This document shows positions 6,830-44,282 of a stretch of DNA of 50,661 bases, piece by piece. The position numbers were made by a program, and so were the translations under genes. Source of the DNA: Candidatus Eiseniibacteriota bacterium (lineage in GTDB: Bacteria; Eisenbacteria; RBG-16-71-46). Position 1 is the stretch's first letter. Every line of letters starts with the position of its first letter. A model generated the notes under the pieces. It had not been told where the DNA came from and searched no databases. It saw only the letters and a list, made by a program, of their open reading frames with translations. The stretch is taken from positions 1 to 50,661 of the forward strand of contig CAVQXP010000005.1 in NCBI GenBank assembly GCA_963717935.1, written 5' to 3'.

Positions 6830-7350
6830 CGAAGCACGAAGTGAGCGCGTCGGTTCTGGGCCCACGCGGACTCGTCGTGGCCCTCGGCGAACGGCCGCTC
6901 CTTGCCGTACGAGAGAGACTGGATGCGCGCGGCCGGCACCCCCGCGTTCACCAGGTAGTCACGTGCCGCGTTCGCGCGCTTCTCGCCCAGCGCCTGGTTG
7001 TACTCGACCGTCCCGCGCTCGTCACAGTGGCCCTCGAGCGTGACGCTCACGTCCGCATGGTCGCGCAGCAGCCTGGCGGCCCCGTCCAACGCCGCCTTGG
7101 CGTCCGCGCGCAACGCGTACGAGTCCAGGTCGAAGAACACGTCCGTGAAGTCGCCCGCCGTCACGGTGGGCACCGGGACCGGGGTCTCGGGCGTCGGCGT
7201 GGGTGTGGGGACCGGGGTCGCGGGCTGCACGACCGGCGGCGCCGGCGCCGGCGTGGGCGGCGCTTCCGCGGCCTTCTTGGCGCAGCCCGCCGCGAACAGG
7301 GCGGCGAGCCCCACCGCCACCACGAAGAGCAGTGCAGGGGTCTTTCTCAT
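6826..7350 (-). CDS. pal: Peptidoglycan-associated lipoprotein Pal
   Basis: AAGC lipobox; VFFDLDSY...EGHCDERGTVEYNQALGEKRA...SYGKERP...WAQNRRAHF. Confidence 0.95.
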   Translation of the reverse strand: MRKTPALLFVVAVGLAALFAAGCAKKAAEAPPTPAPAPPVVQPATPVPTPTPTPETPVPVPTVTAGDFTDVFFDLDSYALRADAKAALDGAARLLRDHADVSVTLEGHCDERGTVEYNQALGEKRANAARDYLVNAGVPAARIQSLSYGKERPFAEGHDESAWAQNRRAHFVLR

Positions 7351-8657
7351 GGTCTTCCTCCGGGGTTTGAGTCTGGAACGTTCGTCGGGACAGCCGCGGC
7401 CGTTCGGCTCGCGGACGGGGACCACGACGGCGACATGGCCGTACGCCCACCGGTATCGAGCATCCGCGGGGGACGCCCGTCGAGGTCCGAGATGAACAGA
7501 GCATAGACGCCCGAGCGATTCGAGGCGAACACCAGATGCCTGCCGTCCGGGGACCAGCGCGGATTCTCGTTGCTGCCACCGCCCACCACGAGCCGGGCGT
7601 TCGTGCCGTTGGCGCCACAGACGTAGAGGTCGAAGCCCGCGGGAGTGCGGCTCACGAAGGCGATCAGGTCCCCGCGCGGCGACCAGGCCGGCGAGTCCGT
7701 GTAACCCACGTCGAACGTCAGGCGGCGGACATTGCCCCCGTCGCGGTCCATCACGTAGACCTGCGGCGAGCCACTGCGATCCGAGGTGAAGGCGATCTCC
7801 CGCCCGGTAGGCGACCAGCACGGCGAGGTGTCGATGGCACGGTTGTCGGTGAGCCGCCGCGGCGAGCCACCGCGCGCGTCCAGCACGTAGATCTCGGAGT
7901 TCCCGTCCTTGCTGAGCGTGCAGGCGATCTCGCGGCCGTCGGGCGAATAGGCGGGGCTGGTGTTGAGACCCGGACGCGCCGAGACCTGGTAGAGCCTGCC
8001 GCCCGCCGGCGGAGACGACGTAGAGGTGCGGGCGAGCCGCCGTCACGATAGGTACTGAACGTCAGGAGCGAGCCGTCCGGGGACCACGACGGCGAGAGCG
8101 CGATGGAGCGGTCCGCCGTCAGCGCCCGGGCCCCGGCGCCGTCCAGGTCCATGACCCAGAGCTCCTTGTTCCGGCCCTCGGGCACGATGAAGGCGATGCG
8201 CGTGCGGGCCACACCGGGCTCGCCCGTGAACTGGAGCACGATGTCGTCGGCGAACTGGTGCACGAGCGCGCGCCAGTCGGCGACCGGCCCGCGGTAGACC
8301 TTCGACAGGATCGGACGCCGGGCCGGAAAGTCGCGGACCTCACCCTCGAGCGTGACCTGCCCGTTCGCCCACCTTCCAGCGTCCGCTGGTCACGGCCTGC
8401 ACGTCGAAGGGCGACTGCCCCGACCACGCGCGCGCGATCAGGAACACGGCTGACCGCTCGAGGTCGTCGGCCAGCACCTCGTCGGCCTGGCGCGCGGCAG
8501 GCGCACCGGCGGGCAGGCGGCCGGCCACGAGCGCCTCGCAGTAGAGCTGCGTGCGGCGCCCGCCGCCGGCGATGTCGATGCGCACCTCGCGGGTCTGCGC
8601 GCGCACACCGGGAGCCGCCAGCACGGCCAGCAGCACGATCAGGGGCAGGCGCCTCAT
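7347..8657 (-). CDS. tolB: TolB (several frameshifts)
   Basis: Signal peptide and VLADDLERS; HQFADDIVLQFTGEPGVARTRIAF; PD40 repeats SPSWSPDG, SPCWSPTG, SPAWSPRG, NPRWSPDG over three ORF pieces. Confidence 0.9.
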
Positions 8658-9310
8658 GGCCTGGCGTACTCGAAGCCGAAATGAATCCCGAGGTCCGAGC
8701 CCGGGAAGCCCAGCGGCAGCGGGGGCAACGGGTCGCTCAGGGTCACGGCCCGCAGCGAGGCGCGGTCGAAGAACTCGATGCCGCTGCCACTCTCGAGCCG
8801 GATGGCCGAGACACCGCCACCCCGGCCGACGCGGAAGTAGACCACGGCGCGCACCGGGCGGCCGCTCTCGAGACCCGCCGGCGGCGCCCAGCTCTGCGCC
8901 ACCTTGTTGCGGATCAGCATGAGGTAGTAGGTGAACTCGAAGTCGCGTGCGTCCGCGGCGAGACCACCGCTCAGGCCCGCGCTCCCCACCCGCGCGTACG
9001 GCAGCAACGACCCCGAGGCCGGCGGCGCCGCCTCCTCGCGTGCGGGCTCGGCCCGCCTGGCGGGCTTCCTGGGCGGCACCAGCTTCACGCCCTCGAGGTT
9101 CTCGGGCTGGATGTCCGGAGCCTTCATGGCCGCCTTCTCCCCGGGCGCCGGGGACGGCACGCCCCGCGGCAGCGCCCCCGGCTCGATCAGTGCGACCTGC
9201 ACCACGTCGGGCCCCGCCACGATCAGGGGCTCGCCCTGGCGCACGGCGAACACCACCGCCAGGAACGCAACGTGGACCATGGCCGAGCCGGCCAGGGCGC
9301 CCCGCGTCAC
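8654..9310 (-). CDS. TolA/TonB family energy transducer (TM with SxxxH, short Pro-rich linker, TonB_C domain)
   Basis: GSAMVHVAF TM motif; FTYYL..IRNKV..SW...F.V.R.G...SGSG..FFDRASLRAV...PLPPLP. Confidence 0.85.
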   Translation of the reverse strand: MTRGALAGSAMVHVAFLAVVFAVRQGEPLIVAGPDVVQVALIEPGALPRGVPSPAPGEKAAMKAPDIQPENLEGVKLVPPRKPARRAEPAREEAAPPASGSLLPYARVGSAGLSGGLAADARDFEFTYYLMLIRNKVAQSWAPPAGLESGRPVRAVVYFRVGRGGGVSAIRLESGSGIEFFDRASLRAVTLSDPLPPLPLGFPGSDLGIHFGFEYARP

Positions 9311-9714
9311 CGGCGGAGCTCCGGGGCCGGCGGCTGGGTCACGAGCCCGAGCGAGGCCACCCCCGCGCGCCTCATGCGCGCGATCAGATCCACGATGGTC
9401 CCGTACGGCACGCCATGGTCCGCCTTCAGGAACACCGGACGCCGGGAAGCGCCGGCCCGGGCCAGCGCTTCCTCGAAGCGGGCCACGGGCACCACCGAGT
9501 TCCCCACCGCCACCGTGCGGTCGGCCCGCACGCTCACGATCAGCCCCTCGCGGACGTCCAGCCCGCGGGTGGCGACGCGCGGCAGATCGATCTCGAGCCC
9601 TCCCTGCAGGAACGGCGCGGTCACCATGAAGATGATGAGCAGCACCAGCACGACATCCACGAACGGCGTGACGTTGATGTCGGCCATCGGCACGCGCGGG
9701 ACGGCGCTCTTCAC
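9307..9714 (-). CDS. tolR: TolR/ExbD
   Basis: MADINVTPFVDVVLVLLIIFMVTAP...VFLKADHGVPYG; GTG start overlaps the tolQ stop. Confidence 0.9.
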   Translation of the reverse strand: MKSAVPRVPMADINVTPFVDVVLVLLIIFMVTAPFLQGGLEIDLPRVATRGLDVREGLIVSVRADRTVAVGNSVVPVARFEEALARAGASRRPVFLKADHGVPYGTIVDLIARMRRAGVASLGLVTQPPAPELRR

Positions 9715-10401
9715 GCGACCGGACCTCCCGTCCGCCGGTCGAGATACTCGGTCACGAAGGTCGCGCTGTTGCTGCTGATGACGCGCAATCGCGTCGAGCA
9801 GGTGGTTGTAGCCCACCACCGCGGGGATGGCCGCTGCCAGCCCCGCCACCGTGGTGATGAGCGCTTCGGCGATCCCGGGCGCCACCACGACCAACGAGGC
9901 GGAACCCTGCGCGCCGATGCTGAGGAAGGCGCTCATCACCCCCCACACCGTGCCCGTGAGCCCGATGAAGGGCGATACACTGCCGGCCGTGGCCAGGAAC
10001 CCCACGTGGCGCTCCAGCCGCGCCAGCTCGTCGCCCGCGGCGCGCTCCATGGCACGCTGGGCCCGCTCGTAGCGCGAAGTGGGCGTGGATCCGGCTCCGG
10101 CCGGCTCCGCGAGCGCCCGCTCACCGACGCGGGTCAGCCGGCCCAGCACGCTGGCCGGATGGGACTCCACGGGCGGGTCTTGCCCGCGTGCCGCGCGAAA
10201 CGCGCCCAGGAACTCGCGGTCCGCGCGCTGCACGCGCAGGTAGAGCCGCAGCCGCTCCACGATGATGGCCCAGGTGTAGACCGAGATCCCGAGCAGCAGC
10301 AGCAGGATGAACTTGGCGAACAAGCCGGAGGCAGCGACGAGAGCGGGTACCGACGCACGCAGTCCGACGCTGGCCTGCAGGATGAAGACACCCAATGCCA
10401 T
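9711..10401 (-). CDS. tolQ: TolQ/ExbB (1-nt frameshift ~9796)
   Basis: FLATAGSVSPFIGLTGTVWGVM...VVAPGIAEALITTVAGLAAAIPAV; the true C-terminus TRLRVISSNSATFVTEYLDRRTGGPVA* lies in the shifted frame. Confidence 0.9.
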
Positions 10402-10496
10402 AGGCCTCACGCTCCCTGTGAAGGTGGGTCGGGTGGAGAACCCGACCGCCAACCGCCGCCGCGGCCTTCCGGGCCGCGAACCAGTCTGGCATCCGT

Positions 10497-10525
10497 AAGC
10501 TAGCATACGCGATGGGGCCTCTCAA
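10497..10525 (-). promoter_or_regulatory. Putative sigma70 promoter for the tol-pal operon
   Basis: TTGAGA-17-TAGCTT with TG extension. Confidence 0.5.
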
Positions 10526-15059: not shown

Positions 15060-16097
15060 TCAGCCGAAGAAGACCCGCGCGGTTTCGAGCAACTCCGCGG
15101 GCACGGTGCGCGGGCCCTGTCGCACCACGGTCAGATCCACGGACGTGATGCGCCCGCCCTGCAGGCTCACCATGCGCCCGTACTCGCCCTTGACGGCCAG
15201 ATCCACCGCGGCCACGCCCATGCGGGAGCCCAGCAGGCGGTCGAACGGGGTGGGCGTGCCGCCCCGCTGCACGAACCCGAGGATGACGGTGCGCGTCTCG
15301 GTCTCGAGCCGCGCCTCGATCTCGCGCGCCAGCAATTCGCCCACCCCGCCGTAGCGCGGCCGGCCGAACGCATCCATGTGCTGTGGGATCTCGAGCGTCT
15401 TCCCGTCCGGGTCGGGCTCGAAGAGCGCCCCCTCGGCCACCACCACGATGCTGAAGAAGCGGCCGCGCGCCTGCCGGTGACGGATGTAGTTGCAGACCTC
15501 GTGCACGCTGGTGGGGCTCTCCGGGGCCACCACGACGTCGGCGCCCCCCGCTATGCCTCCGCACACCGCGATCCAGCCCGCGCTGCGCCCCATCACCTCG
15601 AGCACGATCACCCGGTCGTGAGACTCCGCCGTGGTGTGAAGCGCGTCCACGGCGTCCACGACATGGCGCAGCGCGGTGTCGAAGCCGAAGGAGTAGTCCG
15701 TCTCCGGCACGTCGTTGTCGATGGTCTTGGGAACACCGATGATGGGCACGCCCGCTTCCCACAGCCGCGCGGCGGCGGACAGGGTACCGTCGCCCCCGCA
15801 CACGAGCAACCCGTCCAGTTCGTGCAGGGCCAGGGCGTCCTTCACGGCCTGCACGCCACCCTCCTCGCGGAACGGGTCGGTGCGGGACGTGCCGAGGATC
15901 GTGCCTCCCCGCGGCAGGATGCCCTTGATGGCCGGCAGGTCGAGGTCGCGGGCCCTGGACTTGAAGAGCCCCAGCCAGCCATCCTCGAAGCCCACCATCT
16001 GGCCCTGGTAGGTGCGCACCACGCGCACGACGGCTGCCCGGATGAGCGCGTTGAGCCCCGGACAGTCGCCACCGCCGGTCAGGATGCCCAGACGCAT
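15060..16097 (-). CDS. pfkA: 6-phosphofructokinase (PfkA family, group III-like)
   Basis: [43 protein letters not shown]. Confidence 0.95.
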
Positions 16098-16166
16098 GCC
16101 GACACTCCAGCCCCGGAGAGATTCATCGGTCAGGGACGATTAAGGATGGAACGGCGAAACACGGCG

Positions 16167-16195
16167 AATATGCCCGATGGTTCGGGGGGGGTCAA
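16167..16195 (-). promoter_or_regulatory. Putative sigma70 promoter for pfk-gap-pgk-tpi
   Basis: TTGACC-17-CATATT. Confidence 0.5.
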
Positions 16196-16314
16196 GGACG
16201 GCCGGGCACACGATCGAAAGGAAGCCGGTGGAAGGCTACGCCGCGGCAGGGCGACAGAGCCGCCCGTCGGCTCGAATCGGCCGGGAGGCGGAAGCGCCCG
16301 CCGGGCCGCCGGCG

Positions 16315-17781
16315 TCACTCCGTCGTGTAACGCAGCCGGTAGTCCCCCACGCCAAGCTCGTCCACGAACAGGAAGACGAGCCGCTTGCGGCGCACGCGGC
16401 CGGCGGCGGCGGGGTCCGCGTCGGGAGGCAGTCCGATCGGGCCCTCGTAGATCCAGAACTCGAAGGGGCGCTGGTCGCCACCGGGGCCCTTCGCGTTGAC
16501 GTCACCGATCGCACGGTCTTCGTTCGCGATGATCTGCGTGATGATCAGGTCCACGGTCTGGTCCCCCGTGGGGATCACCTGGTCCACGACCTCGCTCGGC
16601 TCGCCGTAGCGGATGTAGACCCGTCCCATGTCGGAGAACATCCCCTTGCCGAGACCGGGCCGGGTGTAGACCCGGTTCGCGTGGGCCACCCGCCGGAGGA
16701 ACGTCGTCCGGGCCTCGTTCTCACGGGTCTCGGGAGCGGGATCGCGCAGCGCCCAGAAGTCGTCGAGATAGCGTTCCTGCTCCCCGGGGGAGAGCAGCGC
16801 GAAGGCCTCCTCGTCCTCGGCTCCCAGCAGGAAGTGCACGTCGTCCTGGACCTCCCGCGGGTTTCGCAGCCACGAGTCGGGCTGCCAGGCCATGTCGAAG
16901 CGGGCGCGCCTCACGAGCGGGGCCGCATCCCCTTCCTGCCAGACCCGCAACTCCAGATCGTAGCCACCAGCCGGCGCCGTCGAGAGGTCCACCGCCACAC
17001 CGCCCTGGAGCACGCGCGTCGCGGCCGCGGTGCTCTCCCGCGTCGCGATCGCCCGTCCCCCACCGTCGAGGACGCGAGCCGTCCAGTGCCAGGGCCGTTC
17101 CGCACCCGACCGCGCCACGAAGGCCGCTCGCAACTCCGATGCGAAGAGCCCGTACAGCCGCTCCGGGTCGGGCAGCAGGGTTCGTCCACCCCGTTCGAAC
17201 ACCGTCGCTCGCCCGCCCACGCGCTCCGTCCAGAGGAACTCGATGTCGGAGAGGTCGCGCCCATCCACGGGCGCAGCCACGCGCACCTCGCCCTCGACGC
17301 GAGCCGCGGAGCTCGCCCACCCGAGGACCCCGCGCTTGCGCGAGAGCACGTCGTCCACGCGCACGAACAGGCGGTGGCTTCCCGGCCGCGTCGGGAACCG
17401 CAGCCCGATCACCTTGCCGAAGCCCCCCGTCGAATCCACCGGTTCGATGGCGAACTCCTGCGTCTGCTCCTGGGTTCCCGCCCCGCCGAAGGCACCACGG
17501 AGCCGCGCGGTCACGCGCAACCGGGCCACCCCCTGGGCGTCCCGCATCAGCGCCGCCAGCGTGCCGTTCGGGACCCGCACATAGACCTCGAGCGACGTGC
17601 CGGAGGAATCCGGGAACGCCGCGGCATCCACGGTGAAGCCCTTGCGCCCGCCCACACGCCAGGGCAGCGGCCCCTCGTCCGGGCCTGCGGCCCCGGCCGG
17701 GCCGGCCACGCTCAGGGCCAGCATGGACGCCAAGGCAAGACGCGCCCCCGACAGGGAGCGCGTCCGGTACGGCTTCGTCAT
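16315..17781 (-). CDS. GWxTD-domain exported protein
   Basis: Signal peptide; FW..RDP.PET.ENE....F..RV.HAN..Y...GMFSDMGRVYIRYGEP...FEFWIY...FLFVD..G.GDYRL, the GWxTD-domain pattern with a variant core motif. Confidence 0.8.
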   Translation of the reverse strand: MTKPYRTRSLSGARLALASMLALSVAGPAGAAGPDEGPLPWRVGGRKGFTVDAAAFPDSSGTSLEVYVRVPNGTLAALMRDAQGVARLRVTARLRGAFGGAGTQEQTQEFAIEPVDSTGGFGKVIGLRFPTRPGSHRLFVRVDDVLSRKRGVLGWASSAARVEGEVRVAAPVDGRDLSDIEFLWTERVGGRATVFERGGRTLLPDPERLYGLFASELRAAFVARSGAERPWHWTARVLDGGGRAIATRESTAAATRVLQGGVAVDLSTAPAGGYDLELRVWQEGDAAPLVRRARFDMAWQPDSWLRNPREVQDDVHFLLGAEDEEAFALLSPGEQERYLDDFWALRDPAPETRENEARTTFLRRVAHANRVYTRPGLGKGMFSDMGRVYIRYGEPSEVVDQVIPTGDQTVDLIITQIIANEDRAIGDVNAKGPGGDQRPFEFWIYEGPIGLPPDADPAAAGRVRRKRLVFLFVDELGVGDYRLRYTTE

Positions 17782-17806
17782 CAGACTGTCTCGCGACGTC
17801 CAGCGA

Positions 17807-18760
17807 TCAGAACAGGAACGTGAGCGAGAAGCGGTGGACACTGCCCAGGTCCTTCATGTCCGTATAGGCGTAGTCCAGGTCGGCCATGCCAGCCACGGAG
17901 ACCGGCACGTGGAACCCGACCCCGCCGGCGATGCCCTCGGAATCGTAGTTGAAGTTGTAGCCGCCCCGCAGGAACAGGTACTTGCGGAACGAGTACTCCG
18001 CCCCCATGTTGAGCCGCTCCGAGTTGTCCGGCGGGTGCGAGAACTCCAGCGACCCGATCAGCTTCTGGTCACCCCGCTGCATCAGCATCGCCGAGGTGCC
18101 GACCCGGAAGATGGACGGCATCCGCGCCGAGCGGTCGATGAAGCTGATCTGCGAGCCGATGTTCGAGATCGCCATGCCGATGCGCATCCCCAGCGTGCCC
18201 ACGTCGTACAGCGTGCCCACATCGAAGGCCATGGTCGACTGGGTGTACTCAGCCAGCCCCTCGCTGATGAAGTTGCCGGTGACACCGGCACTGAACTTGT
18301 CCGTGAACGAGCGCGCGTAGGTCAGCCCGACGCTCATCATGCCGGCATCGAACGTCCTGCCCGTGCCGATCAGGGGATCCGGCTGGTAGGCCGTCGTCTC
18401 CACCATGGGCTGCATGGAGAGCGAGCGCGCGTGGATCGCAAAGGCACCGGGGATCCGGCGCATGTGGAAGACATAGCCGATCTGGTCGAAAGAAAGCTCG
18501 GCCGGCCAGTTCGCATGATTCAGCGAGAGCTCGGACTTGTCCGGCTCGATCCGCGCGATGCCTGCGGCGTTCCAGTAGACGGAGGTGGCGTCGTCCGCCA
18601 CCCCGACGAAGGCCCCGCCCATGGCCGCCGCCCGGGCACCGACGGCGATCTTGAGGAACTGACCGTCGAACGTCCCGACCTTCTCGAAGATGTTAGCCGC
18701 GCCTGCCCAACAGGGGATGAGCAGCCCCGCCAGGCCCAGCGCCGCGATGACCTTTCTCAC
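17807..18760 (-). CDS. PorV/PorQ family outer-membrane beta-barrel
   Basis: KVGT..GQFLKIAVGARAAAMGGAFVGVADDATSVYWNAAGIA N-terminal hatch; amphipathic strands; C-terminal HRFSLTFLF. Confidence 0.85.
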   Translation of the reverse strand: MRKVIAALGLAGLLIPCWAGAANIFEKVGTFDGQFLKIAVGARAAAMGGAFVGVADDATSVYWNAAGIARIEPDKSELSLNHANWPAELSFDQIGYVFHMRRIPGAFAIHARSLSMQPMVETTAYQPDPLIGTGRTFDAGMMSVGLTYARSFTDKFSAGVTGNFISEGLAEYTQSTMAFDVGTLYDVGTLGMRIGMAISNIGSQISFIDRSARMPSIFRVGTSAMLMQRGDQKLIGSLEFSHPPDNSERLNMGAEYSFRKYLFLRGGYNFNYDSEGIAGGVGFHVPVSVAGMADLDYAYTDMKDLGSVHRFSLTFLF

Positions 18761-18787
18761 TGCGATCCTCCTCTCTCGCTCCCGCGC

Positions 18788-21760
18788 CTAGCGGATGACC
18801 ACGAACTTGCCACGCTGTATGCCACCGTCCGACTCGACGGTGAAGAGATAGATGCCACTGACGATATCCTGCCCGTTGCGCGAGATCAGGTTCCAGCGAG
18901 CCTGACCGTCGTTGGGATTGTCCTGCTGCCGATTGTACCCCGGCACCGTCGTGCCGCCCGGACCCGGGAGCGCCGTGCGGATGGATTCGTTGACCGCATC
19001 CTCCGACCCGAGCGTCTGCACCAGGTCGCCCGAGACCGTGAAGATCTTGATGGTCCACCTCCCGCGCGGCAACCCCATGAAGTCGACGTGCGTGCCGGTG
19101 GGATCCGATCCGTTGGGCGTCAGGTCCCAGGACGAGGGGCGGTCCGCGATGCTCCGGTAGCCCCGGTACGGGTTCGGCACGACCCAGGCCACCTTCCCTT
19201 CGCGCACCGAGCTCTGAGGCACCACGCCGTCGGACTCCGTCGCCGAGCGGCGCCCCGACAACTCGATCGCCGTCCTGCCGAAACCGGTCGAATCAAAGGC
19301 CGCCACCGAGTAGAAGTAGACGAACCCGTTCTTGACCTCCCGGTCCACGAACCGATAGCGGCCCACCGGGTAGCGCATGCGATGCTCCCGGTTGAGCGGG
19401 TCATCGCAGAACTGCCGCCCGAGGATGCAACCGAAGACCTCGTCGCAGTCACCCGCGCGGTCCAGCGCGCAGCCGATGTCCGACACGTGGATGATCTGGC
19501 CACTCTGCCGGTCCCACAGGTCATCCAGCCGCAAGCAGATGTCCACCGTGGCGGTGTCGATGCAGCCGCTCGGGCAGTGCTCGGACCCCACCGGGTAGTT
19601 GTAGTTGGGCACGAACAGACTCGGGCAGTTCTTGGGGGTGGAATCCGTCTCCGACGTGAATTCGTAGTTCCGCTGGATCAGCCCATCGAGACCGTAATAG
19701 TGGAACTGGCGGAACTCGCCCAGCAGCGACCAGTCGTTGTCGCTCGGCCCCGCCGAACCCACCGGCCGCTGCCAGTTGGCCGCCTTCCACACCCGGTAGC
19801 CGCGGAAATCGAGCCAGCCCGACTTGGGGTCCGGCGTGACCTCCGAGATGTTGTCCCAGGCGAGCGTCACCTGGCCGTCGCCCGCCGGGATGATGCGGGA
19901 TTGATTGTCGGAGTAGTTGTACTGGGCCGCCACGTTCAGATTCGGGTTCGGCGGCGGAGCGTCGGCGTTCCAGGTGCGGTGGAACATGCCGAGTTTCTTG
20001 CGATTGTCGTAGGCTCCGGTGCAGTAGTCGCAGTCGAAGTCGAACCAGTCCACGGGATTCGTGAAGGTCACGGTACGCGACACCTGGTCGTGGCAGTCGG
20101 CGGCCGTGATCGCCCCCTGACCCGCGGTCGGGTGGACCGGCGTCTCGCGGCCGTGGCCGTTCGTGAGCCAGGGCCAGTCGGAACGCTGCTCGTAGATGCC
20201 CTCGTAGGCCACCTGGATGGCGTAGGCGTTGTCGAGCGACGGGTACTTGGAGAGCAGCGCGCCCGACCCGCCCGAGAACCGGTCGCCCAGGAACTGCTGG
20301 TAGTCGGCGGCGAACCTGTTGGCGAGATCCCTGGTCCCACGCGCCACGGTGAACGCGACGGTGACCTGGATGCGCCCGCCGTCGGGCACGGCGAACCACG
20401 GTCCGCAGGACCAGTAAGCCAAGTAGTCGCCCTTCTCCTCGCCCAGGGGCTGATTGATGAGGCCGTCCTCACCGATGTTCGTGCCAGCCGCGCCCGACAT
20501 GAACTCGTAGCGCTGCTGGTCGTTGCGCGGCATGCCCCCACCCGCATACGGCGTAATGCCCGTGAACGAGCGGAACGCCAGGAAGCCCACCCTGCTCGGG
20601 CCCGTGACTCCCAACGGATCGATGCTGTGATCCACCAGCAGGAAGCTCGGGATGCCGGTGGTGAGGTTCAGGTCCCCGTTGTCGTCCACGACCGAAAAGC
20701 CGTTGATGCGGATGTCGTAGTGGGTGCACAAGGACGAGTCGTCCGGGACCCCGTCCGGCGTGCCTCTCACCCTCATGGTCGAGTCCTGGAGCCGCTTGTC
20801 CGACGCGGGCGTCATGTGCGGCAGCACGCAACTCGGGAAGCCGGACAGGTCCTGGTCGTCCGCCCAGTAGCTGGAGGCCACCATCGGACCGCAGTCCATG
20901 TCCACCAGGCCGCCCACGACGAGGCTGTCGAGGACGTGGCCAGAAACGTTGGTGAGGTTGTATTGGACGATGTTGAAGTCCGTGAACCCCGGGATCGAGT
21001 AGGCCCAGGCCATCTGCTGGACTTCGATGCCGAGGGGGACGTGCTTCTCGGCCGCCGTGGCGTTGATCGCCTGCGGCGTGTCGTCACGCATCACGCAGGT
21101 GAAGGTCTGCTGCCCGATGGCTCCGTAGTCCTCGTCGATGCTGCCGTCGAGATCGTTGTCGTACCCGTCCAGGAAGTCCTCGTCGATGCGGGGGTCCCCC
21201 GTCACAGGATCCACGTCCAGGTCATCGTTGTTGAACCGCGCGCCGTTCAGTTTCCCATCGTAGGCCCGGTACATCTTGTCCACCGGGTCGAGCGTCGGCG
21301 GGCGCCACTCGGTGATGGCGCTCACGCGACGGATCGCATTCGGGTCCGTGGCCAGAGGATTCACCGCGCCCACCGCGAGGCCACTGAGGTTCAGGTATTC
21401 GATGCCCGAGGCACCCGGCCACTGCGCGGACGGGTCGTTGGAGACATTGGTCCACGGGTTCCCGAAGACCCCGAAGTTGGTGATCTTCATGAAGACGTTG
21501 CCCACGACGAGCACCGCCCCCGGACCGAAGATGTCGGGGATGTCGGATGGGCGCGCGACTTCCGAGCCCTCGACCGGGAAGTACTCCGGCATGGCCGCCT
21601 TGAACTCGGCCTCCGTCATTCCCTCCGGCGTTCCGTCGAGCGTGCCCTTGCGGAAGAACCGGGGGCCCTGCTCGTCCTGCGCGGTCGCAGCGGTCGCGGC
21701 GAGCAGCAGCAACAGGCCCGCTGCCACGCACAGCCGTCCACGCCAAGCAATCGTTCTCAT
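18788..21760 (-). CDS. Large secreted protein with T9SS-like C-terminal sorting domain (alternative start 21790)
   Basis: Signal peptide (..LLLLAATAATAQ); Asp-rich DNDLDGSIDED; FN3-like PxxP..GDGQVTLAWDN...DFRGYRVWK; C-terminal VVPNPY...F.GLP...IKIFTVSGDLV...WNLISRNGQDIVSGIYLF.V....GKFVVIR. Confidence 0.75.
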   Translation of the reverse strand: MRTIAWRGRLCVAAGLLLLLAATAATAQDEQGPRFFRKGTLDGTPEGMTEAEFKAAMPEYFPVEGSEVARPSDIPDIFGPGAVLVVGNVFMKITNFGVFGNPWTNVSNDPSAQWPGASGIEYLNLSGLAVGAVNPLATDPNAIRRVSAITEWRPPTLDPVDKMYRAYDGKLNGARFNNDDLDVDPVTGDPRIDEDFLDGYDNDLDGSIDEDYGAIGQQTFTCVMRDDTPQAINATAAEKHVPLGIEVQQMAWAYSIPGFTDFNIVQYNLTNVSGHVLDSLVVGGLVDMDCGPMVASSYWADDQDLSGFPSCVLPHMTPASDKRLQDSTMRVRGTPDGVPDDSSLCTHYDIRINGFSVVDDNGDLNLTTGIPSFLLVDHSIDPLGVTGPSRVGFLAFRSFTGITPYAGGGMPRNDQQRYEFMSGAAGTNIGEDGLINQPLGEEKGDYLAYWSCGPWFAVPDGGRIQVTVAFTVARGTRDLANRFAADYQQFLGDRFSGGSGALLSKYPSLDNAYAIQVAYEGIYEQRSDWPWLTNGHGRETPVHPTAGQGAITAADCHDQVSRTVTFTNPVDWFDFDCDYCTGAYDNRKKLGMFHRTWNADAPPPNPNLNVAAQYNYSDNQSRIIPAGDGQVTLAWDNISEVTPDPKSGWLDFRGYRVWKAANWQRPVGSAGPSDNDWSLLGEFRQFHYYGLDGLIQRNYEFTSETDSTPKNCPSLFVPNYNYPVGSEHCPSGCIDTATVDICLRLDDLWDRQSGQIIHVSDIGCALDRAGDCDEVFGCILGRQFCDDPLNREHRMRYPVGRYRFVDREVKNGFVYFYSVAAFDSTGFGRTAIELSGRRSATESDGVVPQSSVREGKVAWVVPNPYRGYRSIADRPSSWDLTPNGSDPTGTHVDFMGLPRGRWTIKIFTVSGDLVQTLGSEDAVNESIRTALPGPGGTTVPGYNRQQDNPNDGQARWNLISRNGQDIVSGIYLFTVESDGGIQRGKFVVIR

Positions 21761-21792
21761 GTTCCCTCGCTGCCTGATCGGCTGGTCCATGG

Positions 21793-24609
21793 CTAGAAGG
21801 TGATGCTCGCGCCGAGCCGCACGCTCCGGCCTTCTTCGTAAACGCGCGGATCCCGGACCGGCACCCAGTCCAACAGGTTATCGCCGTTCATGTCCTGCAG
21901 GTAGGCGCCGCCGGACCGTCCCGTCTCCGTGAAGTAGATCAAGTAATCGTCGCCCGCCCCGTTCACGTACGGGTTGAGGCCGTTCAACCCCCCGAGGTTG
22001 GCGATGTTCTTCGAGTTCAGCACGTTCCTGGCGTCGAAGAACAGCGTCACGTTCTGGCCCCACACCTTGTAATACTTGTCGCCGTCGATGGTGAGCCGCG
22101 CGGACGAGGGCAGCCGTCTCGAGTTGTCCAGCGCAGGATCCGGGCGGCGATCGTTGCGGAAGGACGGCGTGAACGGGAAGCCCGAGCCGTACAGCCACAG
22201 CATGCGGAAGCCCCACTTGCCAGGGTCACGCACCACCGTCTGCACCGAGAGCGTATGCCGCTGGTCCCAGTCCAGGGGTTGCTCGGAGATGGGCAGATAG
22301 AGCCGGCCGCCGTTGAAGAACTGCAGCGCGGTGTTTGGGTCCGAGGCCACGCCGGTCGCAAGCTGGAAGGTGTAGTTCACCTCGGCCGAGAACTTGTGGC
22401 TGAAGCTCTTGATGAGGCTCGTCTCGAAACCCCGCGAGCTGGCGTAGTCACCGTTGAAGTAGACGTTGACCAGGTTGCCGTACTCGTCGCGCTCCTGCCT
22501 CACGGTGATCAGCCCGTAGATGTCCTTGAAGAACACCGAGAACTGGCCCGAGATGTCGCGCGAGAACAGGTGCTGCACGCCCGCCTGGTAGGAGATGTTG
22601 GTCTCGGGCTCCAGGTCCGGGTTGCCACGCACTGCCACGCTGGTCTGCAGGCCGCGGTTCTCGAAGATGAACTGGCGCGCCGGAGTCTGGAAGGTCCACC
22701 CGTAGTGGAACGAGAGCACGTCCTTGTCCGAAACCGGGTAGGCGATGCCGAGGCGCGGGCTGAACTGCTGCTTGTAGCGCTTGCCGCTCTGCAGGTCCTT
22801 GTTGGCGACCTGCAGGCCCGGCGAGAACAAGTCGTAGCGCAGGCCCGCGTTGAGCACGAGCCCCTCGAACTCCCAGCGGTCCTGCACGAACGCGGCGCCT
22901 TCGGGGTTGTAGTTGATGAATTCGGAGCGGGCGCCTCCTGGAAGTCCGTTGGCTTCCGAGTTCGGCAGCGTCAGGGCCAGGTTCGACACCTGGTTGTACT
23001 TGGCCTCGACGCCGGTCTTGACGGTGTGCTGCTTCCAGCGCCGGGTCGAGTAGTCGCTCTTGACGTTCCAGGTGGTCTGGCTGCGCTTGGAATAGAAGGG
23101 CCGGTCGCCGTGCGTCGCGAAGAACGGGTTGTTCTCTGTTCCGTACTGGATGTTACCGCTCCAATAGAAGGGGCTCTGGATCCAGTATTCCCACGGCTGC
23201 TTGCCCCCGACCGAGTTGAGCGTGTTGAAGTTCAGGTTCGCCACGCGGGTGGACCACACCGCCTTGTCCGAGATCTGGTCCGTCCAGACCAAGGTCTGCT
23301 GGTTGAACCGGTCGTCCGTCGTCGCGACATGGTCGGGCATGTTGACGTACTGGTACGAGGAGTCCTTCTGCGTGGGGCTCCACGTGCCGTAGCGGGGCAC
23401 GTAGGTGTCGGGCTGGCCCACGACCTCGGTCGTGTCGTAGTTCACCTGTACATAGCCCTCGCGGCTCCACATGTGGTCGTAGGGCGTGTTGACGGTCCGG
23501 TTGTTGATGGTCTCGAAGGTGACCTTGTTCTTGGGGTTCACCCGGTAGGCCAACTTGAAGTTCGTGTTGACCTGGTTGAACTGCCGGTTGCCCAGCTGGA
23601 CGAAGTCGATGAACGTGCGGCGCGGGTGGCTCATGCTGCTCTTCAGGTACGTATCCGAGAAGCTGCCCTCGTAGGTCGCGAAGTAGGTCAGGTTCTTGAT
23701 CGGGGTCGGACCACCGAAACCGAAGGTGAAACGGTCGAAGTTGTCGAAGGTCCGCCTCGCGTCGCCGAAGCGGTCGGTATCCCAGCGCACCTCACCGCCG
23801 AAGCGCTCGGTGCCTTCCTTCGTGCTGACGATCACCACGCCCGAGAGCGCGTTGCCGAATTCGGCATCGAAGCCGCCTGAGAGCACGTCGGTGCCGGCCA
23901 CGGCCAGCGTGGCGATGTTGGCGCCGCGTCCGAAGAGCGGGTCCGACGCCTCGACACCGTCGAACTGGAATTTCACCTCGCCGCCGCGCCCCCCACGGAA
24001 GTGGAGCTCCCCACCGAACGCCACGATGCCGGCCTTCACCGCCACCGCCTCGCGCAGGTTGTCCACCGGGATCTCCTTGAGCTTGTCCGCGGTGATGGTC
24101 TGCTTGGTGGTCGAGGACTTCGTGTCGATGCGCTTCTGCGCGCTGATCTCGATGGTCTCGAGCTCCTTGACGATCTTCTGATCGCCGAAGGCGAAGTTCA
24201 GCGTGGCGGTGGCCCCGGCGCTCACCACGACCGTCTGCTTCTGCGCGTCGTAGCCGGTGGCGATGGCGCGGACCTCGGTCGGGCCCACCGGGACGCCGAC
24301 GATGACGTAGTTGCCGTTGTCGTCGGCCTGGGTGCCCTGCCTCGTCGCGGGAACGGTCACGTTGGCGAAGGGAATCGCCTCGCCGCGGGCCGTCACCCGG
24401 CCCTCGATCCTGCCGAACGCCGACGCCGCAGGTGCCGTCTTCGGGGCAACCCTTGGCGCGGCCGTAGCCCTCGGAGCGGCCCTCGGAGTCGCCGGCCTCA
24501 CCGGGGGATTGGTCTGCTGTGCGATTGCGGGGACCGACAGGGCAAAGACCAGCACAAGCGCCGAGCCCGCTCGGATCAAACGCCTGCCATCAGAGAACAT
24601 GCGACTCAA
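21793..24609 (-). CDS. TonB-dependent receptor with N-terminal carboxypeptidase-regulatory-like domain
   Basis: GRIEGRVT...IPFANV...G...DDNGNY.I.GVPVG; TonB-box-like LETIEISA; plug LHFRGGR..EV.FQFDG...SGGFDAEFGNALSGVV; FSPRLGIAYP, GNPDLEPE; C-terminal Phe. Confidence 0.92.
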   Translation of the reverse strand: MSRMFSDGRRLIRAGSALVLVFALSVPAIAQQTNPPVRPATPRAAPRATAAPRVAPKTAPAASAFGRIEGRVTARGEAIPFANVTVPATRQGTQADDNGNYVIVGVPVGPTEVRAIATGYDAQKQTVVVSAGATATLNFAFGDQKIVKELETIEISAQKRIDTKSSTTKQTITADKLKEIPVDNLREAVAVKAGIVAFGGELHFRGGRGGEVKFQFDGVEASDPLFGRGANIATLAVAGTDVLSGGFDAEFGNALSGVVIVSTKEGTERFGGEVRWDTDRFGDARRTFDNFDRFTFGFGGPTPIKNLTYFATYEGSFSDTYLKSSMSHPRRTFIDFVQLGNRQFNQVNTNFKLAYRVNPKNKVTFETINNRTVNTPYDHMWSREGYVQVNYDTTEVVGQPDTYVPRYGTWSPTQKDSSYQYVNMPDHVATTDDRFNQQTLVWTDQISDKAVWSTRVANLNFNTLNSVGGKQPWEYWIQSPFYWSGNIQYGTENNPFFATHGDRPFYSKRSQTTWNVKSDYSTRRWKQHTVKTGVEAKYNQVSNLALTLPNSEANGLPGGARSEFINYNPEGAAFVQDRWEFEGLVLNAGLRYDLFSPGLQVANKDLQSGKRYKQQFSPRLGIAYPVSDKDVLSFHYGWTFQTPARQFIFENRGLQTSVAVRGNPDLEPETNISYQAGVQHLFSRDISGQFSVFFKDIYGLITVRQERDEYGNLVNVYFNGDYASSRGFETSLIKSFSHKFSAEVNYTFQLATGVASDPNTALQFFNGGRLYLPISEQPLDWDQRHTLSVQTVVRDPGKWGFRMLWLYGSGFPFTPSFRNDRRPDPALDNSRRLPSSARLTIDGDKYYKVWGQNVTLFFDARNVLNSKNIANLGGLNGLNPYVNGAGDDYLIYFTETGRSGGAYLQDMNGDNLLDWVPVRDPRVYEEGRSVRLGASITF

Positions 24610-24662
24610 CCTCTCAGGTGCGCAGCGACACGGTCAGTGGGTCCAGACCAAACGAACGATGG

Positions 24663-24691
24663 ACGATGCCAAGCCAAGGTCACGCTGTCAA
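24663..24691 (-). promoter_or_regulatory. Putative sigma70 promoter upstream of the TonB-dependent receptor
   Basis: TTGACA-17-CATCGT with TG extension; a second candidate TTGACA-18-GATAGT at 24888-24917. Confidence 0.45.
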
Positions 24692-24964
24692 CGCAATTCC
24701 GGCGACGGAGCCTTCCATCCACTGGAATCATCTGGGGGCTCGCCTGAGTCCGGACGCGCGAAGGACGCGCCACACGCAGGCGGAGATCACGATCGGAGTC
24801 GGCAGATCGAGTGGTGGTTCGGTTCGGCGGGATCGGCACCTGTGGAAATACCGCCGGACGGCGGTGCCCTACGCCCAGTACAGCGGGACTATCCCGCCGA
24901 CCCGGGGGGGTTGTCAAGAGTTCTTTCAGCCCGCCCCCGGTCCCCCCCTGCAGTCCCCGCACGC

Positions 24965-26593
24965 TCAGAAGGCCCACCGCAACATGCTGGCCAGCTGCTG
25001 GCGGCTCGCGCGCGGCTCGGCCGGAGTGCCGTAGTCGGCCCGCAGCCATTCGATCGCATAGCCGGCCTCGAAGGTCCAAGTGGCTCCGGCTGGCCGGATT
25101 CCGAGCCCCAGGGTCATGGTCTGAGCGAGATTCTCGTTCTGCTGGGTGTACTCGTCGAGGTCTTCCCAGCGATACGCGTAGCCGACGCGCCCGGTCAGCA
25201 CCCGGGTGCACCGGTACTCGAATCCAGTCCGGAGGTCCCAGCCCTTCCGCAGCGGGCCCTGCCCGCTCAGCGTCTGCTCCGCCAGGCCCTGCAGCCGGTG
25301 GTACTCGACACCCCACAACCCGCGCCCACCCGGCAACCGCATCGCCAGCCCGCCGCCGGCCTCCCAGGTGCGCTCCTCGGCCTGGTTGTAGGCCACGCTG
25401 TCCGGGAGCATGAGGGAGTCGGCGTTCGAACGGTAGGTGACGATGTTCCGGAAGTAGTTGAACGACGTGAGGTCGTCGATACCTGGAGGCGTGATCAGGA
25501 TCCTGCGGTAGCCGGTCGCCAGCCCGCCACCCAGTTCGAACGGCCCGCGCGTCCAGCGCAACCGCGTGCGCAGGGCCCGTCCGCGCTCTTCACGCTCCAG
25601 GAGCTTGCCCCGCCCCACGAGCGGGTCGGCGCCCACGCCGGCGGAGATGCTGAAGAACCAGCTCTCCTCGGACCGTGAACGCCAATCGCGGCCATCCACG
25701 CCCCACTCCAGGCTGCGCCCCAGGCGTCCGACCAGCGTGGCCTGGCTGGTGTGGTAGGGACGCTTCTCATCGCTCTGCGCGAAACGACGGGGCGCTTCAT
25801 TCTCTCCGTGGATGCTGTTCTGGACGATATCCATGTTCACCGCGGCCTTGAAGGCCCGGCCACGGTCGTAGGCCACGCCCAGCCCGCCGCCCGTGCTGCG
25901 GACCGTGAAATCGGTAGCCGTGAAGAACTCGGGCGGGTCCAGCTCCGGGCCGGTCTGGTCGATGTACTGCCCCTCCGAGTTCTCCAGCAGGCTGCGGTAC
26001 TGGTTCACCGAGGTCTCGCCGGAATAGAAGAGTCGCACGGAGTAGAGCCAGCGGCTCGACTTGAGGTAGGGCACGCGCCCCATCAGCACGGGCATGATCG
26101 TCGGCTGGTTGAGAGTGTTGCGCCGTTCGACCGTCTCCGAGAAGACCTGATCCGTGCGCAGGGACCCGAGATCGCCCGCGATGCCGTATGCCGACGTGCC
26201 GCCCGTGCGGCGCCACATCTCGTAGGCGATCCGGCCCTCCCGCGCCGCGCGGTCCTGCCGCTCGAGGGTGCTGGTGCCGCTCGGGAGATTGTGCACCCTC
26301 GAGAACGAGGAGGTCGCCGGGTACAACTCGGCCGTGTTGGTGCTGTCCGCTTCGAGGATGCCCAGGGGGCTGGCCGCGAAGTCCCACAGCGTGATGGCGG
26401 TGTGGGGGTCGTCCCCCACGAACGTCATCCGGCCCATGCCCAGCAGGCGCGGGCTGCGCTCGATGGCATCGAGGGAGAAGCCGAGTGCGTCGCGTGCCAC
26501 GTCGTAGAACTGCGCATACACGGGCACCGCGAGGGCCGCGAGGAGGAGAATCGAAGTGATCGCGCTCAGCAGAACCCTGCGCCTGGGGCTCAT
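24965..26593 (-). CDS. Hypothetical outer-membrane beta-barrel protein
   Basis: Signal peptide ending VYA; SPRLLGMG (FadL/PorV-like hatch motif); many alternating strands; C-terminal LRWAF beta-signal. Confidence 0.75.
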   Translation of the reverse strand: MSPRRRVLLSAITSILLLAALAVPVYAQFYDVARDALGFSLDAIERSPRLLGMGRMTFVGDDPHTAITLWDFAASPLGILEADSTNTAELYPATSSFSRVHNLPSGTSTLERQDRAAREGRIAYEMWRRTGGTSAYGIAGDLGSLRTDQVFSETVERRNTLNQPTIMPVLMGRVPYLKSSRWLYSVRLFYSGETSVNQYRSLLENSEGQYIDQTGPELDPPEFFTATDFTVRSTGGGLGVAYDRGRAFKAAVNMDIVQNSIHGENEAPRRFAQSDEKRPYHTSQATLVGRLGRSLEWGVDGRDWRSRSEESWFFSISAGVGADPLVGRGKLLEREERGRALRTRLRWTRGPFELGGGLATGYRRILITPPGIDDLTSFNYFRNIVTYRSNADSLMLPDSVAYNQAEERTWEAGGGLAMRLPGGRGLWGVEYHRLQGLAEQTLSGQGPLRKGWDLRTGFEYRCTRVLTGRVGYAYRWEDLDEYTQQNENLAQTMTLGLGIRPAGATWTFEAGYAIEWLRADYGTPAEPRASRQQLASMLRWAF

Positions 26594-26716
26594 GAAAACT
26601 CCTTTCCGGCTGGTCCGGGTCAGAATGGTCCATTCACCGTGCGGAGGAGGACTCTCTCCCGCCTGCCGGGGCGAAAGTGCGCGCGGTCAACGAGGTGCGC
26701 ATGCACGGACCGCACG

Positions 26717-26745
26717 ATACTAGGAACTGGTCACGAACGTGTCAA
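26717..26745 (-). promoter_or_regulatory. Putative strong sigma70 promoter for the outer-membrane cluster
   Basis: TTGACA-17-TAGTAT. Confidence 0.65.
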
Positions 26746-27416
26746 CCGCGGAGCCGGGGCGCAGTTCGGCGCACCCGGGCCCGGCCCACCCGGGACGCGG
26801 CCCCGCCGGGCGCCGAGACACACGGATGCCCCTCGAGGAACCAGCGCCAGTCCCGGTCGAGCGCCACCCGGATCCCGACGCGCGGCCCCCGGGCGATGCG
26901 ATGGCCGCCGCGCCGCGGCGGCAGGTCCGAGAGCCAGAGCGGCCCACCCACCAGATCGACGCCGTCGTGCGCGCGAGTGAGCCCGAGCGCGCGAGCCACG
27001 TTGCCGGGCCCCCGCGCCAACCGGGTGGTGGCGCCCGTGCCGCGCCGCTCGCGCATGAGACCGCTGCCGTCCACCGGCTCCAACGCCCGCACCAGGACGG
27101 CCGAGGCCTTCCCGGCGGTCCCGGTCACCAGGTTCAGGCAGTGGTGCATGCCGTAGGTGAAGTAGACGTAGGCGTGACCGGCCTCGCCGAACATGGCGGC
27201 GTTGCGCGGCGTGCGGCCGCGGCGGGCGTGGCTCGCGGGGTCGTCCGCGCCGCGGTAGGCCTCGGCCTCGACGACGAGGCCGGAAACACGCCCCCGGGGC
27301 GAGTCGTGCACCAGCAGGCGGCCGAGCACGGCGCGGGCGACGACGACCGGATCGCGGGCATAGAAGGCCCGCGGCAGCGGCCTGCCGCGGGCCTTGCCCG
27401 AGGCCGCCTTCCTCAA
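26742..27416 (-). CDS. mpg: DNA-3-methyladenine glycosylase (MPG/AAG family)
   Basis: FY.RD...VAR..LG, VEAEAY.G.DDPASH, AYVYFTYGMHHCLN, AVLVRALEP, GPGN, PRVGI. Confidence 0.93.
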   Translation of the reverse strand: MRKAASGKARGRPLPRAFYARDPVVVARAVLGRLLVHDSPRGRVSGLVVEAEAYRGADDPASHARRGRTPRNAAMFGEAGHAYVYFTYGMHHCLNLVTGTAGKASAVLVRALEPVDGSGLMRERRGTGATTRLARGPGNVARALGLTRAHDGVDLVGGPLWLSDLPPRRGGHRIARGPRVGIRVALDRDWRWFLEGHPCVSAPGGAASRVGRARVRRTAPRLRG

Positions 27417-41290: not shown

Positions 41291-43762
<2,472 letters not shown>

Positions 43763-43784
43763 CGCCGGCCGGCCCGTCACACCG

Positions 43785-43822
43785 ACGCCCGCGGGGCCCC
43801 GAGCCCCGCGGGCGTTCCGTTT
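43785..43822 (+). terminator. GC-rich stem-loop after hppA
   Basis: ACGCCCGCGGGGC-cccga-GCCCCGCGGGCGT followed by TCCGTTT. Confidence 0.65.
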
Positions 43823-43853
43823 GCGTGCCGCGGCCCGCCCGACCCCGCCCCTG

Positions 43854-43882
43854 CCGGTGGCCCCAAGAATGGGGATACTCCA
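43854..43882 (+). repeat. Orphan copy of the IS3 right end (IRR)
   Basis: CCGGTGGCCCCAAGAATGGGGATACTCCA matches 45482-45510 at 27/29 positions, same orientation, ends in CA. Confidence 0.85.
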
Positions 43883-43895
43883 CGTCCGCGGGCGA

Positions 43896-44216
43896 CTACC
43901 GCACTACCACACGCCTCCTATTGAACATCTGATCACCAGCGCTGTCCGGAAGCACGAGCCGCTCGTCTTGAAAGCCGACGGGTCGCAAGTACACGTTGAT
44001 ATACACCTCGCCGCCTCACTCTATCGTCCCTCGTGATGCAAATACGGCTACGTGCGCGCTCTCATGCGACTCAAACGTCCCCACAAGCGTGTCTCCCTTG
44101 GCAGTGACCACCACGATCCGGTGGGGTCCAAGACCAACTCGCGCGTCGAAGAAGTAGACTAGCCTCGTCGAATCGGCCACGACCGACGACGTGGCAAAGT
44201 CCGCCGGTCTTGTCGG
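43896..44216 (-). pseudogene. 5'-truncated unknown ORF with internal TGA
   Basis: PTRPADFATSS...RGTIE-TGA-GGEVYINVYLRPVGF...VVVR* in a single frame; cut by the IS left end. Confidence 0.4.
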
Positions 44217-44282
44217 TGGAGTGTCCCCCGTTCCTGAGGCCACGGATTATGGCAGGATGCCCCGGTCCCCGGAGGATCCTGC

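Follow-up and report, generated by a model that had tools for sequence, protein, structure and literature searches.

A conserved gene set of Candidatus Eisenbacteria that may pair a TonB-dependent transporter with a type IX-exported surface protein held on a PorV/PorQ-family barrel

The window analysed here, the entire 50.7-kb contig CAVQXP010000005.1, belongs to a metagenome-assembled genome of Candidatus Eisenbacteria, an uncultured phylum of the Fibrobacterota-Chlorobiota-Bacteroidota (FCB) group. The genome comprises 3.0 Mb in five contigs, is 93% complete and has a G+C content of about 70%. On the minus strand of the window, between mpg (26742-27416) and pfk (15060-16097), we located five co-oriented open reading frames (ORFs), which encode, in the order of transcription, a 542-amino-acid (aa) barrel, a 938-aa TonB-dependent transporter, a 1000-aa secreted protein (hereafter the large protein), a 317-aa PorV/PorQ-family barrel (hereafter the PorV-like barrel) and a GWxTD protein (Table 1). 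Together they may constitute an uptake system of the outer membrane. An earlier note on this DNA had described five co-oriented genes for exported proteins at this place and had seen neither a SusD-like lipoprotein nor a recognisable enzyme among them, and both statements were confirmed: all five ORFs are present, and Pfam/NCBIfam and loose Pfam scans of the five proteins found no SusD-like protein and no recognisable enzyme domain. Because their G+C at codon position 3 (0.88-0.92 in each) equals that of the surrounding housekeeping genes, all five are coding. Sec-type signal peptides were read from the sequences of all five proteins, including the GWxTD protein, and a lipobox from none; all three barrels, the PorV-like one among them, end in Phe.

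The last four genes are tightly packed, as had been claimed. The transporter gene and the gene of the large protein are 2 nucleotides (nt) apart, or 32 nt if translation begins at the second Met, as it does in the 990-aa form in the database; 27 nt separate the latter from the PorV-like gene, and the PorV-like and GWxTD genes overlap by 35 nt or, counted from the GWxTD ATG, are separated by 25 nt. The 542-aa barrel gene is not part of this packing and lies 355 nt upstream of the transporter gene, behind its own promoter-like site. The minus strand contains three sigma-70-like sites, compared with 0.6 ± 0.9 in shuffled sequences; they precede the 542-aa barrel gene (26745-26717), the transporter gene (24917-24888, with 10 of 12 promoter matches) and pfk (16195-16167). 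The transporter leader, about 290 nt from the promoter-like site to the start (window 24600-24890, minus strand), has a folding energy no better than shuffles (z 0.68), and an Rfam scan of 16000-27000 returned no riboswitch and a single chance-level match (IRES_Bip, E 0.12). No glycoside hydrolases or regulators were found near the module.

Four metatranscriptomic libraries from three studies hold contigs that are 88-99% like stretches of the window. In library X5, single contigs extend over 17607-19787, 20674-22290 and 22569-25225 and span all gene junctions between the GWxTD gene and the 542-aa barrel gene, the 355-nt spacer included; libraries X18 and X20 also bridge the junction between the transporter gene and that of the large protein. 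These contigs are consistent with co-transcription, although contigs can neither prove a single transcript nor exclude carry-over of DNA. Differences in depth between the module and its flanks were set aside, as contigs give no ranking of genes.

Table 1 Features of the five-gene module in the window
Feature	Position	Strand	Basis
542-aa outer-membrane barrel, ~18 strands	24965..26593	-	Model and DSSP; no named family
Spacer, 355 nt, with sigma-70-like site (24917-24888)	24610..24964	-	Promoter-like motif scan
938-aa TonB-dependent transporter	21793..24609	-	Pfam domains; likely true start ATG at 24600
1000-aa secreted protein, unnamed family	18788..21790	-	Fold match and C-terminal domain profile
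Variant C-terminal domain of the 1000-aa protein, residues ~862-1000	18788..19207	-	Type A-like core strands and two insertions
317-aa PorV/PorQ-family barrel	17807..18760	-	NF033709
GWxTD-domain protein, 508 aa (488 aa from ATG at 17781)	16315..17841	-	TIGR04514, PF20094

The large protein belongs to no Pfam family (a loose Pfam scan with E up to 1 gave noise), and its named database relatives are listed as 'hypothetical protein'; almost all of those found in named genome contigs bear the label Candidatus Eisenbacteria. Searched against 1.84 billion proteins, its profile collected 3312 cluster representatives at E<=1e-3 and, at the stricter 1e-30, 320. The signal peptide is followed by a supersandwich region (residues ~85-530), a middle part rich in beta structure and a long variant of the type A C-terminal domain (CTD). 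In the AlphaFold2 model the supersandwich region resembles the N-domain of a phosphorylase of glycoside hydrolase (GH) family GH94 (5nz7_A, VIA Z 17.7, root-mean-square deviation (rmsd) 3.5, 265 residues aligned), the N-domain of a glucoamylase (1lf6_A, Z 16.5) and galactose mutarotases (Z ~12). The top Z values of 17.7, 16.5 and 16.4 are based on 240-265 aligned residues with rmsd 3.0-3.8, and the Foldseek E value is 3.5e-6. Residues ~85-530 are thus predicted to fold as a galactose-mutarotase-like supersandwich of the N-domain type known from GH94, GH15 and GH65; the predicted local distance difference test score (pLDDT) is 70-90 over ~230-530 and lower before. The fold matches cover the N-domains of these enzymes alone, not their catalytic domains, and residues 540-860, modelled at low confidence, have no catalytic match in Pfam. 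The invariant residues D211, D213, D215, D219, E220 and D221 belong to Asp-rich loops which, by their sequence, look like calcium sites.

The C-terminal tail of the large protein had been read as similar to those of cargo of a type IX secretion system (T9SS). It is missing from the genome-wide list of CTDs (45 at E<=0.01, 35 over the cut-off). In a profile-profile comparison, hhalign aligned the CTD profile with a profile of 33 canonical CTDs of the same genome at 92.3% (E 5.6e-7, 78 columns), and the alignment reaches the last residue of the protein, at its extreme C terminus. By this comparison the tail is homologous to the type A CTDs of the genome and consists of a type A core with two insertions. 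Invariant columns account for 31 of its 139 positions (22%), compared with 12% in the two other regions of the protein, and insertion 1, with 28% invariant columns, is as conserved as the core. Ordinary T9SS CTDs are described as cleaved signals in PMC11285876. Since the CTD is the best-conserved part of the large protein, a retained binding domain fits better than a disposable signal, and the pattern of conservation suggests a lasting partner. Three other proteins of the genome carry the variant CTD, two of them beside a second PorV-like barrel.

We considered, and rejected, a gene fusion that would join the large protein to the PorV-like barrel. Three long open frames were seen, two of which lie in different frames. 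At L162:2850-3200 (genome G128), an in-frame deletion removes the last CTD strand and the stop and retains the signal peptide of the barrel; this single case is probably a deletion or an assembly artefact rather than a working fusion and was not counted as evidence.

The PorV-like barrel is a genuine member of the PorV/PorQ family, as the first reading of the sequence had it. It scored 202.5 bits against NF033709 (cut-off 90; 202.2 bits in the genome scan) and matched Flavobacterium johnsoniae PorV (6h3i_F) over residues 8-221 with an E value of 1.6e-5. Its scores are below the equivalog cut-offs of PorQ (NF033711, 91.5 bits against 220), PorV (NF033710, 82.3 against 250) and PorV2 (55.1 against 325), and on these scores we assign it to a third kind within the family, neither PorV nor PorQ proper. 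It is the best-conserved product of the five genes, with a mean column identity of 77% over 15 orthologues, followed by the transporter, the CTD of the large protein and then the remainder of the latter, the GWxTD protein and the 542-aa barrel. Matches to it at E<=1e-30 were found in 119 of 121 phylum genomes, and the rows listed at >=50% identity represent 17 of the 18 families sampled, family f9 having a weaker match only. This tally and those for GldM and SusD below include one genome flagged as unpublished (G026), on which no conclusion hinges.

In the transporter, a signal peptide, a Pro/Ala-rich linker, a CarboxypepD_reg extension and a TonB-box-like motif precede the plug and a barrel of the 22-strand type. 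The barrel scored 89.6 bits against PF00593 (TonB_dep_Rec_b-barrel, cut-off 27), the plug 24.6 bits against PF07715 (cut-off 23.9) and the extension 51.9 bits against PF13620 over residues 68-140 and 46.6 bits against PF13715. The plug and the 22-strand barrel identify the protein as a TonB-dependent transporter, and the N-terminal PF13620 extension places it in the Oar subclass. An E-x-I/V-x-V-x-A/G stretch, recognised by what we take to be the TonB-box consensus, lies between extension and plug in all 14 aligned orthologues, eight of which come from deep families, and the terminal Phe is likewise kept in 14 of 14, deep families included; the plug, too, is retained across deep families. The earlier note had compared the receptor with those of the SusC type. 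By the SusC/RagA signature TIGR04056, which gave no match at E<=0.01, the transporter is not a member of that family. PDB sequences gave none at 1e-3.

We propose as the simplest model, built from known pieces and given a probability of about 0.45, that the module is a TonB-driven importer with a T9SS-exported surface binding partner that is held on its own PorV-like barrel; the protein contacts, the retention at the surface, the direction of transport and the ligand are all inferred. The large protein would be exported by Sec and would then cross the outer membrane through a T9SS-type translocon, using its CTD. The CTD would not be cleaved and would stay on the dedicated PorV/PorQ-like barrel, as PorZ does on PorQ and PorU on PorV in Porphyromonas, and the supersandwich domain would thereby be placed at the cell surface beside the transporter. 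This fold is typical of the modules by which glycoside phosphorylases and glucoamylases bind carbohydrate. The ligand captured there, in the likeliest case a glycan or a calcium-associated polymer, would be passed to the transporter, which TonB would open via the TonB box. The 18-strand 542-aa barrel might be an accessory, either a diffusion channel or a structural partner, and the GWxTD protein another, either periplasmic or surface-associated. The module would do the job of a SusD lipoprotein in a phylum where no SusD was found: SusD_RagB (PF07980) was detected in 0 of 61 phylum genomes, with a positive control in Bacteroides thetaiotaomicron, which fits the independence from SusD postulated from the sequence. 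As for precedents, PMC10202324 includes the statements that the uncleaved CTDs of PorZ and PorU are held by their cognate barrels PorQ and PorV and that cognate PorV-like barrels may shield a CTD from cleavage, and according to PMC9143113 type B cargo is anchored by adjacent PorP-like barrels.

The expectation of conserved synteny was borne out, the unit being kept across the Eisenbacteria phylum. Around relatives of the large protein we inspected 20 loci: all five genes are in order in 13, three more stop at a contig end or have the core with no 542-aa gene detected, and four are paralogue loci without the module. Among 59 named Eisenbacteria contigs, 34 have all five genes in order and 23 have contiguous subsets cut by contig ends; one of the remaining two carries the large gene alone and the other has a different order. 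These sets share at least five contigs and are kin, and pmm, mpg and often pfk are syntenic in them as well, so that on their own they do not prove a functional link. In the deep families, the four-gene core of transporter, large protein, PorV-like barrel and GWxTD protein is in order in 17 of 20 loci, two of which carry an extra copy of the large gene, and pfk, mpg and pmm come and go across these loci while the order of the core stays. Two of the other three loci are cut by contig ends and the third is L147, from genome G106. The profile of the 542-aa barrel was found in 16 of the 20 deep-family loci, directly upstream of the transporter in 14. A search of named genome contigs returned contigs of the Eisenbacteria type only. 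Two contigs with the module at 52-57% identity, L073 and L102, bear the labels Candidatus Limnocylindria and Verrucomicrobiia but probably stem from Eisenbacteria and were mis-binned.

A second module was identified on another contig of the same genome (C4, ~990000-1008000, locus L130). It encodes, in this order, a CTD protein, a transporter, a PorV-like barrel, an NHL-repeat protein, a CTD protein, a 601-aa protein and a protein with a canonical CTD, and it has neither a GWxTD gene nor a 542-aa barrel gene. The transporter is 25-34% and the PorV-like barrel 35% identical to their counterparts in the first module, and two paralogous proteins have the long variant CTD in common with the large protein and weakly resemble it in their N-terminal part. 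The transporter scored 31 bits against TIGR04056 (cut-off 368). Of 14 fetched loci from three families, 13 preserve the gene order and the fourteenth is cut by a contig end; two of the three clear transporters of this class in the genome adjoin a PorV-like barrel. An old duplication has retained the trio, which therefore argues for a working relation among transporter, PorV-like barrel and long-tailed protein; this repetition of paralogous genes provides the best support found for a functional relation. The second-module transporter is itself split over overlapping frames, with an apparent frameshift (G000:C4:997078-999872).

The trio also bears on an alternative explanation, in which the large protein and the PorV-like barrel form a self-contained display pair, the large protein being an adhesin, a glycan-binding protein or a coat protein fixed to the barrel by its uncleaved CTD, and the other three are envelope genes that act separately and are merely co-transcribed. 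A pairing of the PorZ/PorQ type, as outlined in PMC10202324, requires no transporter, large-gene-like copies exist away from transporter and PorV-like genes (L033, L039, L046, L055 and the copies in G106), and in close relatives the housekeeping flanks are as syntenic as the module. We nevertheless consider this explanation rather unlikely. The trio recurs in an anciently diverged second module with its order preserved in 13 of 14 loci, the transporter and large genes lie 2-32 nt apart and are bridged by contigs of three libraries (from two or three studies), and in deep families the order of the four genes persists even where their surroundings differ.

The proposed importer depends on a route by which CTD proteins leave the cell, and such a route exists: the genome encodes PorU with a PorV-family neighbour, SprA-like pieces and 35 ordinary CTD proteins over the cut-off. 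PorU scored 487 bits (cut-off 420), and a PorV-family gene follows it directly (C4:1845348-1849961); PorV-family genes exceed the cut-off at five places in the genome. The SprA-like gene of ~6.3 kb (C4:1327017-1333288) yielded pieces of 129, 111, 74.5, 63.6 and 37 bits, none of which reaches the 200-bit cut-off, and extends over three overlapping frames (L138:5017-11288); SprA_N passes its Pfam cut-off. The split frames of this gene and of the second-module transporter are perhaps indel errors of long-read assembly, and they may also be real pseudogenes. The check for T9SS genes thus turned up PorU, the SprA-like gene and PorV paralogues, and no gldL, gldM or gldN by models that had no positive control. 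A weak GldK match (89 bits against a cut-off of 350) comes from a stand-alone FGE-sulfatase-type gene; a gldKLMN operon beside it was rejected, as its neighbours are on the other strand.

The composition of this machinery leads to the possibility that the module serves export or surface assembly: the Oar-type TonB barrel, energised by TonB, would assist the outward passage of the large protein, or of other CTD proteins, for collection by the PorV-like barrel. Such a TonB-driven branch of type IX-like secretion would belong to a phylum in which no GldLM motor was found. The earlier note had allowed for export. According to a portion of PMC6434023, Oar of Myxococcus xanthus is a TonB-dependent transporter required for secretion of PopC and typifies a subclass defined by the PF13620 extension; the transporter described here has the same architecture of PF13620 extension, plug with TonB box and barrel. 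It differs from Oar in that no PopC-like protease is encoded here and the neighbouring protein has its own T9SS-type export signal. Importers such as SusC often carry a CarboxypepD_reg extension as well, and to our knowledge Oar with PopC is the single case of its kind. None of 61 phylum genomes yielded GldM, and GldL, GldM_1st and GldN were not found in this genome, which keeps the export role worth considering, but these models had no positive control and absence is not shown. The invariant core at L147, consisting of transporter, PorV-like barrel and GWxTD protein, also suits export, whereas the SprA-like gene, PorU and the PorU-adjacent PorV already account for the export of CTD proteins. 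On balance we find this possibility improbable. We see an even slimmer chance for a TonB-energised device in which Oar-type and PorV-like barrels export and dock the long-CTD proteins and TonB-ExbBD replaces the rotary motor; if true, this would show that type IX-like secretion can be powered in another, or an ancestral, manner.

The 542-aa barrel was modelled with a pLDDT of 85.3 and a predicted template modelling score (pTM) of 0.80, and DSSP assigned 18 long strands to it. It has no Pfam or NCBIfam match (a loose Pfam scan with E up to 1 gave noise). The best fold match was OccD2 (3sy9_A, VIA Z 18.3, rmsd 4.0, 282 residues aligned), tied with many porins of 16-18 strands and with barrels associated with the beta-barrel assembly machinery (BAM) (Z 16-18). 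By sequence, the view that it is a second barrel of the FadL/PorV type was rejected, as hhalign against the PorV-like barrel gave 1.7%.

The BAM-associated barrels among these tied matches recall another interpretation, namely a housekeeping complex of envelope biogenesis, accessory to outer-membrane proteins, lipids, lipopolysaccharide or exopolysaccharide, in which the PorV/FadL-type barrel is structural like BamG. An excerpt of PMC12578637 reports that the FadL-type barrel BamG binds a surface lipoprotein in the BAM of Bacteroidota, and this precedent, the match to the PorV-like barrel in 119 of 121 genomes with its very high conservation, and the position of the module among core metabolic genes would all fit. 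However, no BamA, Lpt, Wza or other biogenesis domain occurs in the five proteins, ordinary porins share the tie of fold matches, no homology was detected between the 542-aa barrel and the PorV-like one, and a plugged TonB-dependent transporter is a transport device. We therefore hold a biogenesis complex to be very doubtful.

The GWxTD protein scored 67.4 bits against TIGR04514 (cut-off 28) and 28.3 bits against PF20094 (cut-off 26.9), and its profile has no solved relative at E<=1. In this group the name-giving motif reads GMFSD rather than the literal GWxTD: over 17 aligned orthologues, G380 and D384 alone are invariant within it, and directly behind it G386 and R387 do not vary either. In the Atlas, the closest clusters consist of GWxTD proteins and occur most often in Gemmatimonadota and Krumholzibacteriota. 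Two further GWxTD genes of the same genome sit in other contexts. At L135 (G000:C4:1729000-1736000), a GWxTD gene outside the module lies head-to-head with a gene for an M6-type metalloprotease, followed by NlpC/P60 and PopA-like porin genes, and because of this context GWxTD proteins are not tied to PorV-like barrels everywhere.

Several points weigh against the TonB-driven importer. The variant CTD scored 16 bits against the curated T9SS type A model TIGR04183 (cut-off 23), so that the claim of a T9SS-like tail stands by homology to the CTDs of the genome and not by this model. GldL, GldM, GldM_1st and GldN had no match in the 93%-complete genome, with models that lack a positive control, and a working T9SS like that of Bacteroidota is therefore not established here. 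Function does not follow from a common fold, and for the large protein confidence in the model is no more than moderate (pLDDT 63 overall). No riboswitch, regulator or nearby enzyme hints at a substrate, and the RNA-library contigs prove neither a single transcript nor transcription. All synteny comes from one phylum, and in closer relatives pmm, mpg and often pfk are syntenic too, so that part of the conservation is vertical inheritance. L147 has the 542-aa barrel, transporter, PorV-like and GWxTD genes without a large gene; the two relatives of the large gene in G106, of ~860-870 aa, are on other contigs. Being single-copy and near-universal in the phylum, the module has the look of a core function rather than of a locus for a particular nutrient, and L147, the near-universal single copy and the extreme conservation indicate that the PorV-like barrel may do more than hold one protein.

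The proposed importer shares features with several known systems. As in SusC/SusD and RagA/RagB, a TonB barrel with a CarboxypepD_reg-type extension is encoded beside a large surface-destined partner with a binding fold, in an operon-like arrangement. Unlike in SusC/SusD, this partner is no SusD lipoprotein and has no lipobox; it has instead a T9SS-type CTD and its own PorV-like barrel. The transporter also differs from SusC/RagA by the missing TIGR04056 match, and the setting by the lack of nearby glycoside hydrolases and regulators. As in PorZ-PorQ and PorU-PorV of Porphyromonas gingivalis, a CTD protein is paired with a PorV/PorQ-family barrel, and its CTD is conserved as if retained. In contrast to these pairs, the barrel remains below the PorV and PorQ equivalogs, the cargo is unrelated to PorZ or PorU, and the genes of the pair stand in one set with those for a transporter, a porin-like barrel and a GWxTD protein, in a genome that has a separate PorU with a PorV-family neighbour. 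Type B CTD cargo of F. johnsoniae and P. gingivalis resembles the present case in that a cargo-specific PorP/SprF-like barrel adjoins the cargo and presumably anchors it, as PMC9143113 and PMC10202324 describe; there the pairs come without a transporter, whereas here the tail is type A-like and the barrel of the PorV/PorQ family. A literature search found no description of the module, of GWxTD proteins, of a PorV-family/TonB-transporter pair or of a T9SS in Eisenbacteria, and Candidatus Eisenbacteria appears in surveys only, as far as titles and abstracts show.

Two further features of the window were recorded. About 6 kb downstream of the module, past pfk-gap-pgk-tpi-secG, a minus-strand cluster (window 6053-10506) encodes ExbB/TolQ and ExbD/TolR domains, a protein with a TonB_2-type C-terminal domain, a 105-aa ORF and a YfiO/TPR protein; it could be a Tol-Pal or a Ton system. 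An IS3-type transposase ORF pair (HTH_Tnp_1, then rve) is present at 44283-45478, inside a stretch of lower G+C (42000-48000, 0.65-0.67 compared with ~0.72 elsewhere).

Overall, the module appears to join two known outer-membrane designs in one conserved gene set, a TonB transporter with a surface partner and a type IX cargo on a PorV/PorQ-type barrel. If the proposed contacts are true, bacteria outside the Bacteroidota would place a capture protein by secretion and docking on a barrel, not by lipoprotein export. A first function would then be at hand for a PorV/PorQ clade, for an unnamed family of several thousand clusters, for GWxTD proteins and for a new porin-like barrel. GldLMN were not found beside the PorU, SprA-like and CTD genes, which raises the question of how type IX-like export is powered in these organisms. 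The importer, if real, would also offer a handle on the physiology of an uncultured phylum of soil and sediment with very few TonB-dependent transporters.

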